29,427 nt of DNA from Candidatus Staskawiczbacteria bacterium (GTDB lineage: Bacteria > Patescibacteriota > Minisyncoccia > Minisyncoccales > Staskawiczbacteraceae). Below are positions 10,921 through 13,112 of the stretch, piece after piece. A program made the translations under genes and the position numbers. The notes beneath the pieces are model-generated. The model was given only the letters and a program-made list of their open reading frames with translations. It was not told the DNA's origin and ran no database searches. The stretch is from positions 1 through 29,427 of the forward strand of contig CAINMG010000121.1 of assembly GCA_903850725.1 (NCBI GenBank), in the 5' to 3' direction. The stretch's first letter is position 1. Every line of letters starts with the position of its first letter.

Positions 10921-12225
10921 ATGGATTTAACCTCACCTACAGCAATAAAAGAGATTTTAGAAAAATATGAAGTCAAACCATCCAAAAGCTTGGGTCAAAA
11001 TTTTTTGATTGATAAAAATATTTTAAACAAAATTATTTTAGCTGGAAATTTAACAAAAGAAGATGTTGTTTTGGAAGTGGGGCCAGGTGTTGGCACTCTT
11101 ACTTGTGAGTTGGCAAAATCTGCAGGCAAAGTAATTGCCATAGAAAAAGATCATGATATGATAAACATTTTAGCAGAAACTTTAAAAGATTTTAACAATG
11201 TACATATAATAGAAGGCGATGCCTTATCCCTAAACCCTATACCATATACCCTAGACCATAAATATAAGCTAATCGCCAATATTCCCTATTATCTTACCTC
11301 TCACTTAATCCGAACTTTTCTAGAAGCAGAAAACCCTCCCCAAGAAATTGTTTTGCTTATTCAAAAAGAAGTAGCTCAAAGAATATGTGCCAAGCCCCCA
11401 GAAATGAGCTTGCTTGCAGTATCTGTGCAATTTTACGCACAAGCAAAAATTATTTCTTATGTTTCTAAAAACTGTTTTCTACCAGCTCCCAAAGTTGACT
11501 CAGCCATAATTCGCATCACCCCTCATAAAAATGATCGACTCCCGATGTCGATCGGTTTTACGCCAAAAGAATTTTTTAAAATAGTGAAAGCTGGATTTTC
11601 ACATCCTAGAAAGCAGTTGGCAAATAATTTTTGCCAAGCTTTAAAGGTGGAGAGAGAAGTAGTAGAAAGTTGGCTTTCAAAATGCGGTCTCAAACCCAAT
11701 CAGCGCGCAGAAACTCTATCAGTAGATGATTGGAAAAATCTTGCCTCTTACGACCTATCCCTAGCCCTTCCCGAAGGGAAGGGGGTGACGACAAGTCCTT
11801 CCTGTTGGGAAGGATCTAGGATGGGTAGCGAGGGATGGGTGAACGAAACGAAGGGATCCGACATACCTGGTTATTTTACAACTGATGCAAAAACATGGAA
11901 ATTACTTCAAGAAGAAGCTGTTAAAATGAGAAAAAATCCAACAAAAGCAGAAGAAATTCTTTGGAAATATTTGAAAGCAAATAAAAATTACCATTTTAGG
12001 AGACAACAGATTATTGATAAATTTATAGTTGATTTTGTGTGCCTATCTAAAAAAATAATTATTGAGGTTGATGGCAATATTCATAATTTACAAAAACAGA
12101 GAGATGAGGGGCGAACAAAAATTTTAGAAAATCTTGGTTTTAGAGTTTTAAGATTTAAAAATGAAGAAGTCATAGACAATGTAGATATTGTTGTCAGAAA
12201 AATTATAAATACGACCCAACCCTAA
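10921..12225 (+). CDS. rsmA: 16S rRNA dimethyltransferase RsmA/KsgA fused in-frame to a C-terminal DUF559 (Vsr-like) endonuclease
   Basis: KSLGQNFL, VLEVGPGVG, AIEKD, GDAL, ANIPY, PAPKVDS; then MRKNPTKAEEILW, FRRQ, FIVDF, IEVDGNIH, DEGRT, LRFKN (DUF559 pattern). Confidence 0.93.
   Translation: MDLTSPTAIKEILEKYEVKPSKSLGQNFLIDKNILNKIILAGNLTKEDVVLEVGPGVGTLTCELAKSAGKVIAIEKDHDMINILAETLKDFNNVHIIEGDALSLNPIPYTLDHKYKLIANIPYYLTSHLIRTFLEAENPPQEIVLLIQKEVAQRICAKPPEMSLLAVSVQFYAQAKIISYVSKNCFLPAPKVDSAIIRITPHKNDRLPMSIGFTPKEFFKIVKAGFSHPRKQLANNFCQALKVEREVVESWLSKCGLKPNQRAETLSVDDWKNLASYDLSLALPEGKGVTTSPSCWEGSRMGSEGWVNETKGSDIPGYFTTDAKTWKLLQEEAVKMRKNPTKAEEILWKYLKANKNYHFRRQQIIDKFIVDFVCLSKKIIIEVDGNIHNLQKQRDEGRTKILENLGFRVLRFKNEEVIDNVDIVVRKIINTTQP
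11228..11257. repeat. four heptad repeats (CCCTAAA/CCCTATA/CCATATA/CCCTAGA) inside rsmA
   Basis: Direct reading; TATACCCTAGAC (11245-11256) is the exact reverse complement of part of the 20871-20898 unit. Confidence 0.6.
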
Positions 12226-12318
12226 ACACCTATCCCCAGCCCTTCCCGAAGGGAAGGGAAACAAAAGTGCAAGTCCTTCCTTTCAAGTCCTTCCTTTTGG
12301 GAAGGATTTAGGATGGGT
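11753..12318 (+). mobile_element. putative DUF559 endonuclease cassette bounded by hairpin-rich direct repeats
   Basis: Repeat copies at 11753-11826 and 12228-12318; first 31 nt are 30/31 identical and last 35 nt are 33/35 identical. Mobility is inferred. Confidence 0.65.
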
Positions 12319-12326
12319 TTAAAAAG

Positions 12327-12335
12327 TTATCCACA
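12327..12335 (+). promoter_or_regulatory. perfect DnaA box (TTATCCACA)
   Basis: Exact consensus 9-mer, intergenic. Confidence 0.5.
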
Positions 12336-12354
12336 GGTATGCTTTATTAAATAT

Positions 12355-12383
12355 TTGCTTGATTTTTTAATAAGATGTATAAT
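12355..12383 (+). promoter_or_regulatory. sigma70-type promoter for the MNT-HEPN pair
   Basis: TTGCTT, 17-nt spacer, TATAAT. Confidence 0.6.
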
Positions 12384-12404
12384 AAAATAATTTAAGTTTA
12401 TCTA

Positions 12405-12722
12405 ATGAGATTAGAACATTATTCAGAGGAAAAATTAAAAAAAGAAATTTTGGAAATTGTTGGCAAAAAACTTGATTTAAAAAAATACAAGGTGTTTTTC
12501 TTTGGGTCAAGAGTTCGTGGCGATAATTTCGAAAGAGCAGATATTGATTTGGGCATAGAAGGACCTAAAGAAATTGATTCTATGGTGTGGACAGAAATCG
12601 AAGAAGAAATAGAAAAAATCCCGACACTTTATAAAATAGATTTTGTTGATTTTAAAGAGGTAGGAGAAAATTTCTATAACATTGCAAAACAAAATATTGA
12701 AATTTTAGAACCTGCAATATAA
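12405..12722 (+). CDS. minimal nucleotidyltransferase (MNT; MntA-like antitoxin)
   Basis: FFGSRVRGDNFERADIDLGI = GS...DxD motif; KIDFVD C-terminal motif; 105 aa. Confidence 0.88.
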   Translation: MRLEHYSEEKLKKEILEIVGKKLDLKKYKVFFFGSRVRGDNFERADIDLGIEGPKEIDSMVWTEIEEEIEKIPTLYKIDFVDFKEVGENFYNIAKQNIEILEPAI

Positions 12723-12740
12723 TTTATAATATATAAAAAT

Positions 12741-13112
12741 ATGACAGAAAATTATCTTTTACAAGATTTTAAAAAAACTATAGACAACCTTGACGAAGTA
12801 TTAAACATGAAAGAAGAAAATATAGTTCGCGATGCGGCCATGAAACGCTTTGATTTGTGTTTTGATACAGCATGGAAATTAGTAAAAAATCTAGCTAAAA
12901 AAGAGGGCATAGAATGTTACTCTCCACGCCAATGTTTCAAAGTTGGTTTTCAGTTAAAATTGCTTGGCCATGATAGCGAATGGGTAGATATGTTAGAAGA
13001 TAGAAATTTGTCTGCACATTTATATAAAGAAGAAGAGGCAATAAAAATTTATACCAGATTACCAGAATATTTAAAATCATTCAAAAAACTATTAATTGAG
13101 GCAGAAAAATAA
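12741..13112 (+). CDS. HEPN / nucleotidyltransferase substrate-binding protein (HepT-like toxin)
   Basis: RDAAMKRFDLCFDTAWK, SPRQCFK, RNLSAHLY (Rx4H); directly downstream of the MNT gene. Confidence 0.85.
   Translation: MTENYLLQDFKKTIDNLDEVLNMKEENIVRDAAMKRFDLCFDTAWKLVKNLAKKEGIECYSPRQCFKVGFQLKLLGHDSEWVDMLEDRNLSAHLYKEEEAIKIYTRLPEYLKSFKKLLIEAEK

Follow-up and report, generated by a model that had tools for sequence, protein, structure and literature searches.

Introduction

Several described genetic systems resemble the locus reported here. RAYTs are HUH/Y1 transposases, and REPs are extragenic. The Rickettsia palindromic elements (RPE) are not known to be accompanied by an enzyme gene and occur in Rickettsia-like genomes only. 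The EDxHD homing endonucleases (I-Bth0305I, PDB 3R3P; 'fractured genes') are selfish and occupy conserved sites of housekeeping genes; they are ~260 aa long, bind DNA through an N-terminal NUMOD/HTH region and are found within group I introns or flanked by the halves of split inteins, and hairpins have been noted upstream of EDxHD-type endonuclease open reading frames (ORFs) (PMC3239194; PMC2677866). The BoxC/PIT/TMECO triplex motif, CCCTCNCCC-N3-6-GGGNGAGGG-N3-GGGNGAGGG, is dispersed in many copies, exists also as 'palindromic' double units and marks variable loci (Holder et al., 2015; PMC4666352). Here we analysed a 29,427-nt stretch of Candidatus Staskawiczbacteria DNA (contig CAINMG010000121.1; hereafter the window) and found an inserted cassette at positions 11753–12318, in which a gene for DUF559, a Vsr-like PD-(D/E)XK nuclease, lies between GC-rich hairpin repeats and is fused in frame to rsmA, the gene for 16S rRNA adenine dimethyltransferase. 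It belongs to a widespread family of small DUF559 cassettes that look selfish and are bounded by GC-rich ends. No description of the cassette was found in the literature on DUF559, Vsr-like in-frame insertion, palindromic elements of tRNA synthetases, endonucleases and hairpins in leuS, and EDxHD.

The window DUF559 belongs to the same clade of the Vsr-like superfamily as the EDxHD endonucleases and likewise resides in a housekeeping gene. However, it is a bare domain of ~110–130 aa that lacks the NUMOD/HTH N-terminal region, and its cassette contains no group I intron (Rfam), no intein domain (Pfam) and no split gene; the frame is continuous, the cassette is bounded by three-block hairpin repeats, and read-through translation would make the nuclease a part of the host protein. 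As in REP/RAYT systems, a small nuclease-type gene is flanked by dispersed structured repeats, many of which have no gene; unlike in those systems, the gene between the window repeats is a PD-(D/E)XK DUF559 rather than an HUH/Y1 gene, and the units and cassettes enter reading frames. The likeness to inteins lies in the in-frame residence at conserved sites of essential genes and in the expression of the nuclease via host translation, whereas the window insert has no Hint domain (Pfam) or splice-junction residues, its junction peptides (LALPEGKG and SPSCWEG) are repeat-encoded, and it apparently stays in the host protein. The RPE and window sequence families are unrelated. We regard REP/RAYT, RPE and inteins as functional analogies only. 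The comparison with REP/RAYT and homing systems drawn in an initial annotation of the window is reasonable in that sense, namely that the element may work like them.

Results

DUF559 is inserted at the 3' end of rsmA

The window is contig C121 of a genome bin, G000 (1.01 Mb, 33% GC, 159 contigs, 3.4% contamination). Relatives cited individually are denoted G001, G002, G003, G008 and G010, contigs by C-numbers and fetched loci by L-numbers; the window features given below for 10921–12383 lie on the + strand. A single ORF at 10921–12225 encodes 434 aa, in which Pfam identified RrnaAD at residues 21–276 (E = 3e-56) and DUF559 at residues 330–431; rsmA proper occupies 10921–11751. The in-frame RsmA–DUF559 reading frame proposed in the initial annotation was thus confirmed, with both domains. 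Comparison of the rsmA 3' ends in relatives showed that the fusion is not vertically conserved: rsmA was present in 37 of 40 relatives, in open frames of 272–398 aa, and none of these 37 carried a DUF559 fusion.

In every tail read, the RsmA of relatives ended 3–17 residues past a conserved tail motif (DWKNL in G000). The window rsmA lacks the native last few C-terminal codons and the stop codon, which, as read from the sequence, the cassette replaced. The alignment with the nearest species, G003 (RsmA 81% identical), halted at 11744 and resumed after R2, the right end of the cassette. The shared sequence there begins at a DnaA-box-like TTATCCACA (12327–12335, directly 3' of the cassette), followed by a promoter-like site, TTGCTT-17-TGTATAAT, at 12355–12383 upstream of a nucleotidyltransferase gene (identified by eye; a promoter scan listed a weaker overlapping site). 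This native intergenic DNA (12327–12383) is common to G003 and G002 downstream of rsmA. Because the fusion is absent from the 37 relatives and the synteny with G003 resumes right after R2, 11753–12318 is an insertion of ~570 bp.

The rsmA 3' end is a variable spot, as comparison with G002, G003, G008 and G010 shows. At the same position, G003 carries a different cassette (L010:1076–1441) with a 122-aa 23S-rRNA-IVS-protein gene (PF05635, E = 2e-36), bracketed by inverted repeats, of which the left is a G-rich block and the right the complementary C-rich one (GGGTCTAGGGTGCAG type). It is a second kind of small repeat-bounded cassette at the same hot spot. G002 retains just a remnant of the G003-type right (C-rich) block, and in G008 and G010 the rsmA stop codon lies 10 nt upstream of the nucleotidyltransferase gene, which starts at 12405 in the window. 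A metagenome scan returned no near-identical rsmA locus, with or without the cassette.

The DUF559 closest to the window copy was that of G003, which lies inside leuS; the two were sisters in a quick tree (SH-aLRT 95), with ~71% aa identity. The leuS loop is empty in G000, G001 and G002, and the leuS flanks of G000 and G003 share ~90% DNA identity right up to the ~430-nt insert. DUF559 was not found in G001 or G002, which are 93% and 99% complete, respectively. In the tree, in which many forks were unresolved, the window DUF559 fell within a clade of 41 rows, mostly in-frame inserts, separate from a clade of 35 free-standing genes; in Flavobacteriaceae, a single DUF559 lineage (SH-aLRT 98) occurred in RecG, urocanase and IleRS. 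Two other features of LeuRS were observed in the genus: G001 has a small GC-rich insert, GQAFAEASADKQ, at the loop occupied by DUF559 in G003, and the G000 protein carries HSTRSARSGQS near its N-terminus.

The cassette ends are hairpin repeats, and the left pair is read in frame

Each cassette end consists of three blocks, a hairpin and an adjoining third C- or G-rich block. In the hairpin, the 5' arm is rich in C and the 3' arm in G; a left-type end (L) is a C-rich prefix plus the hairpin, and a right-type end (R) is the hairpin plus a G-rich suffix. In the window, L1 (11753–11783) has the prefix ACCTATCCCTAG and the hairpin CCCTTCCC-GAA-GGGAAGGG, with the in-frame reading DLSLALPEGKG, and R1 (11792–11826) has the hairpin TCCTTCC-TGTTG-GGAAGGA and the suffix TCTAGGATGGGT, with the in-frame reading TSPSCWEGSRMG. 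They are followed by a linker (11827–11859) in which the G-rich suffix occurs once more, as GGGATGGGT. This linker has its mirror image in a C-rich block directly ahead of L2 and is similar to GGGCGAGGGATGGGC, the right end of the leuS cassette in G003. The DUF559 domain and a short tail (11908–12225) end with their own TAA stop codon at 12223–12225. L2 (12228–12258), 3' of the stop codon, is identical to L1 at 30 of 31 positions, and R2 (12284–12318) to R1 at 33 of 35.

The two direct repeats described in the initial annotation, with their hairpins, were therefore found as stated (97% identity over the 31 nt of 11753–11783 and 12228–12258; 94% over the 35 nt of 11792–11826 and 12284–12318), as was a 14-bp tandem duplication at 12270–12297 (unit CAAGTCCTTCCTTT) of the 5' arm of the R2 hairpin. 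Both hairpin cores are unique to these two places in the window, with none expected from 100 shuffles. The repeats have 51–57% GC, the DUF559 body 25–29% and the genome 33%. The spacers between L1 and R1 and between L2 and R2 differ (GGTGACGA and AAACAAAAGTG, respectively); simple duplication of one 75-nt unit was rejected for this reason.

As single strands, both copies folded better than shuffled sequence, with z = −3.65 for the left copy and −2.72 for the right copy on the + strand. The repeats had been described as Y-shaped. This held for the − strand of the left copy, whose minimum-energy fold was a Y-shaped three-way junction, whereas on the + strand a cross-paired long hairpin was predicted with similar energy, because the arms of the two hairpins can pair together. 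The Y shape is, in these predictions, one of two competing and nearly equal folds.

The same L sequence and frame as in L1 (..LALPEGKG) were found in the leuS insert L044 (PSPALPEGKG), and the frame of R1 (..SPSCWEG) is that of the right end of the same insert (PSLWEG). A metH insert, L140, has the same L sequence just ahead of DUF559 (frame read by hand). The frame is maintained across the 75 nt that separate L1 from the nuclease body. By our own estimate, three independent frame agreements would arise by chance about once in 27; the read-through frame was therefore taken as inherited from a translated ancestor. Translation from rsmA can, judging by the ORF, run through to give RsmA–DUF559. 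R1 also contains an ATG at 11821, in frame with DUF559 and with a Shine–Dalgarno-like GGAAGGA, at which DUF559 alone could start.

The nuclease gene is intact

The DUF559 match (PF04480, residues 330–431) scored 113.2 bits against a curated cut-off of 20.6 (E = 7e-33), and the protein matched PDB 3HRL with E = 4.8e-19. DUF559/MTES_1575 was the only Pfam match in the insert, with no other domain between RsmA and DUF559, and the DUF559 part is ~134 aa at most. The core motif VDF.C ... E.DG..H ... RF.N is kept in the window copy, and D61, E72, D74, H78, R101, F102 and N104 did not vary among the 14 sequences compared, to which both this copy and Escherichia coli YcjD belong. The dN/dS against relatives was 0.15–0.25 by a rough Nei–Gojobori estimate with dS near saturation. 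The nuclease gene thus appears intact and under purifying selection. VSR, DUF559 and DUF2726 have been grouped with 1cw0, 3hrl and 3r3p in one PD-(D/E)XK clade (PMC3424549). In the literature searched, biochemical data on DUF559 proteins of this type were not found.

DUF559 recurs as an in-frame insert in large genes

A database search restricted to long proteins gave 628 proteins of 477–1521 aa that carry DUF559, typically as an in-frame insert; the hosts included LeuRS, IleRS, Acs, RecG, many methionine synthases (MetH), Tgt, RecJ and phosphoglycerate mutase. In species genomes, the 50 closest loci with DUF559 were likewise mostly in-frame inserts within large genes. Nineteen of them lay at one LeuRS loop, between ..WIGRSEG.E..F and ..VFTTRP.T, in Patescibacteria and Bacteroidota; other hosts were acetyl-CoA synthetase (Acs), RecG, IleRS, urocanase, MnmA, RecQ and an AddB-like nuclease. 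Three of the 50 were C-terminal fusions as in the window, to a type I specificity subunit and UvrD-like helicases, and one of these came from an isolate, Bacteroides salyersiae DSM 18765. Within the same class, DUF559 was found in 59 of 401 genomes, mostly as free-standing genes of 115–190 aa, with up to five copies per genome.

Some DUF559-bearing LeuRS genes of Patescibacteria had further domains. L049:742–3348 and other leuS loci carried, besides the DUF559 insert, a NUDIX domain (PF00293) at the expected editing region, and some also had a hydrolase domain (PF06821 or PF12695).

The ends accompany DUF559 and also occur without it

We compared 300 nt on each side of DUF559 by blastn-short at E ≤ 1e-3, with windows shifted by 800 nt as controls. 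The flanks matched each other in 43 of 71 DUF559 loci and in 3 of 141 shifted controls; at the stricter E ≤ 1e-5, the numbers were 33 loci and no control. Of 72 loci, 55 had hairpins with a C-rich 5' and a G-rich 3' arm within 150 nt on both sides of DUF559; among the shifted controls, 3 of 137 did. The repeat type is thus tied to DUF559 elsewhere, as the initial annotation would have it. L-DUF-R was the prevailing polarity for in-frame inserts and R-DUF-L for free-standing genes.

The window is distinctive in that each flank is a complete, palindrome-like L+R unit, giving [L R]-DUF559-[L R], which is read as two direct repeats. The same layout was found in an MnmA insert (L055; 86 nt, 95% identical), at a free-standing gene (L121; 121 nt, 100% identical), at several further loci and on contig C150 of the bin (160 nt, 86–87% identical). 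The C150 DUF559 was rejected as a second copy in this organism because of a T9SS sorting domain; the contig, probably a Bacteroidota contaminant of the bin, counts as an independent example of the layout. C150 (L007) is 1.7 kb long, and besides the T9SS C-terminal sorting domain it has seven or eight tandem 21-nt repeats at 173–407.

At least five stand-alone sites were found elsewhere in G000: a full unit with a closing stem on C2, single ends on C61, C76 and C110, and a site on C59. The last, at C59:1598–1628, is a single R-type unit read in frame (SLPFGKGWGW) in a ComEC-like gene (506 aa; identity by eye). By eye, this unit apparently lies between the first two hydrophobic segments of the ComEC-type membrane protein. 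The exact L core was found in 32 metagenome loci, most with the same C-rich prefix and many with an R partner 10–110 nt away; 29 of the 32 had no DUF559 in the fetched stretch, and two of the three that had it were metH inserts. L156, on an unrelated metagenome contig, is a stand-alone L+R unit nearly identical to L2+R2.

The cassette itself has no transposase, as first annotated, whereas the assembly holds one elsewhere: an IS200-type Y1 transposase at C136:1665–2030 (PF01797, E = 7e-30), the sole strong Y1_Tnp match in the assembly. It has hairpins of its own (CTACGGGCTTACGCCCGTAG and CCCTCGCGCTAACGCGCGGG), unrelated to the L and R units of the window. This transposase was considered as mobiliser of the cassette and found no support, since its hairpins differ from the L and R units.

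The ends share the design of triplex-motif repeats

R of the window fits the three-block layout of BoxC/PIT/TMECO (TCCTTCC-TGTTG-GGAAGGA-TCTA-GGATGGG), and L fits its reverse complement (CCTATCC-CTAG-CCCTTCCC-GAA-GGGAAGGG). The TMECO blocks are 9 nt long and nearly pure G/C (CCCTCNCCC and GGGNGAGGG), whereas those of the window are 7–8 nt long and contain A/T (CCCTTCCC and GGGAAGGG). The window ends therefore share the TMECO design, not its sequence family; the likeness is one of layout, folding having been modelled with Watson–Crick and wobble pairs. Unlike TMECO, which is reported to be intergenic in every case and to have no link to mobile elements (Holder et al., 2015; PMC4666352), window-type units flank a nuclease gene and also lie in frame inside genes.

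We scanned the 401 genomes of the class for a loose triplex motif, CCCC-N3-14-GGGG-N1-6-GGGG. Twenty or more occurrences were counted in 23 of the 59 genomes positive for DUF559 and in 11 of the 342 negative ones (Fisher p = 9e-14, which overstates the significance because relatives are not independent), and of the 13 genomes that had 50 or more hits, 12 were DUF559-positive. The median number of hits was 14 for the motif and 2 for a mirror-order control pattern. Several DUF559-'negative' genomes belong to genera with positive members.

In E. coli K-12, the stop codon of ycjD, a DUF559 gene (L124), lies within a C/G hairpin, and a canonical TMECO lies ~170 nt downstream. At L124:3040–3420, a partial duplicate of the last ~45 nt of ycjD lies ~60 nt past the stop codon and is followed by the TMECO; the duplicate looks like the scar of a rearrangement at a cassette end.

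Discussion

We consider it fairly probable that a DUF559 cassette of a selfish-looking family was inserted at 11753–12318 and that such cassettes spread by a nuclease-driven, homing-like process; we infer that the nuclease itself moves the cassette. The selfish-element reading of the initial annotation is supported in that the fusion proved not to be vertically conserved and the repeat was found with DUF559 elsewhere. In the proposed mechanism, the nuclease would cut or nick a structured L|R unit, or an empty target, and repair of the break by recombination from a cassette-holding copy would copy the cassette in, as in homing. The window cassette would have landed on the last rsmA codons and removed the stop codon. 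The gene-less L+R units may be non-autonomous derivatives of the cassette. Two routes to [L R]-DUF559-[L R] can be envisaged: an R-DUF-L segment could enter the centre of an existing L|R unit, or the unit of a cassette could recombine with a chromosomal unit of the same family. Both fit the window, because of its layout and the different spacers of its two units, and a recent event of this sort would agree with the 121-nt repeats of L121, which are perfect.

A number of observations weigh against this explanation. The two opposite polarities, L-DUF-R and R-DUF-L, are explained by no single simple mechanism. The unrelated spacers of L1R1 and L2R2 do not agree with simple duplication of one 75-nt target, and no target-site duplication is visible in the window sequence at the outer borders of the cassette. 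With only ~71% identity between the sister copies, no recent move is documented in the genus, and neither a cleavage activity nor a cut site is known. Stand-alone ends far outnumber nuclease-bearing ones, so the gene could be a passenger. Finally, 11 motif-rich genomes had no DUF559 match at E ≤ 1e-10, and the correlation of motif and nuclease ignores relatedness.

Some of these points are also those on which the main rival explanation draws. In it, the L and R repeats spread by other means, such as a trans-acting enzyme or replication slippage, and DUF559 is either cargo caught between two repeats in a composite arrangement or a host-useful nuclease that processes these unstable structures and for that reason tends to be found next to them. 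The excess of stand-alone ends (29 of the 32 metagenome loci, at least five sites in G000) would follow from it, as would the place of the window gene between two complete units with different spacers rather than inside one; the TMECO of E. coli, for which no mobile-element link was found (Holder et al., 2015; PMC4666352), agrees with it, and purifying selection on DUF559 would be expected of a useful gene no less than of a selfish one. However, the ends vary widely among genomes, and yet 55 of 72 DUF559 genes are flanked on both sides, which is hard to obtain by chance trapping. In-frame inserts without a start or stop codon of their own occur at one leuS loop in two phyla, and a guardian gene would have no reason to reside inside leuS, metH or recG. 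On balance we think this rival somewhat unlikely. That the repeats are merely RNA punctuation of an ordinary gene, acting as terminators, stabilising stem-loops or processing sites with no mobility, has little probability. Stable hairpins do bracket the gene, and the right pair follows the stop codon. Yet neither repeat is followed by a T-tract, and the terminator and promoter scan did not call the repeats terminators and placed no promoter within the cassette. An Rfam scan of 11500–12600 at E ≤ 1 gave no match, and hence no known intron, riboswitch or repeat RNA family. Moreover, the left pair lies inside a reading frame, the same units lie in frame within other coding genes, and their presence varies between sister species.

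A bifunctional enzyme kept by selection, its nuclease domain being of some use to the methyltransferase or to the ribosome, would account for the single 434-aa open frame with both domains intact, and L1 and R1 are also read in the frames of other inserts. We give it very little credence, because the fusion occurs in none of the 37 relatives, dozens of unrelated enzymes carry this nuclease domain as a fusion or an insert, and the linker is a repeat-encoded low-complexity peptide. The fragmentation and contamination of the bin (159 contigs, 3.4%), together with the Bacteroidota-like contaminant C150 as its other DUF559 contig, would allow a repeat-induced chimeric join that placed a foreign DUF559 cassette beside rsmA. 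On the sequence evidence such a misassembly is unlikely, with next to no probability in our estimate: the longest exact stretch between the two flanks is ~21 nt, the spacers are unique, the DUF559 body has a genome-like GC content of 25–29%, and its closest relative is in a sister species of the same genus.

If the homing-like explanation is true, these cassettes are a new type of selfish element in the niche of inteins and intron-borne homing endonucleases, one that is simply translated through. This would affect how one reads and annotates the insertions that LeuRS, MetH, IleRS and other essential enzymes contain. A bolder proposal, which we put forward tentatively as possible rather than probable, is that DUF559 proteins are the missing enzymes behind BoxC/PIT/TMECO-type repeats. 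The nuclease and its L/R ends would then constitute a mobile element of a new class, one that needs neither transposase nor intron nor intein, enters the frames of essential genes, stays in the finished proteins and leaves stand-alone L+R units as non-autonomous copies; the window layout would be the trace of one of the two routes above. This would provide a candidate enzyme for BoxC/PIT/TMECO, which have been tied to genome instability since the 1990s without a known mechanism, and E. coli ycjD makes the link between enzyme and repeat testable in a model organism. To this picture, the window adds a case at a gene 3' end that gives a C-terminal fusion, the layout with two whole units, and sister nucleases in different host genes of one genus.

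Additional observations at the rsmA locus

Downstream of the cassette, 12405–13112 encodes a nucleotidyltransferase (Polbeta/NTP_transf_2) and an NTase_sub_bind (HEPN-like) protein, in the usual layout of an MNT–HEPN toxin–antitoxin pair. Such a gene pair directly follows rsmA in G008 and G010 and is absent from G003. A defence-island reading was dropped, as DUF559 matched no defence model in PADLOC and the adjacent nucleotidyltransferase only a weak PDC-S09. As well as G002 and G003, several further relatives have DnaA-box-like sites after rsmA (TTATCCACA, TTATTCACA and TTATCCACT). The rsmA of G001 (L094, contig C20 of that genome) holds a different in-frame palindromic insert of ~37 aa at residues 104–113 (SSSLRGSSQADEAIQNE...RLPRSSPAEQ...).

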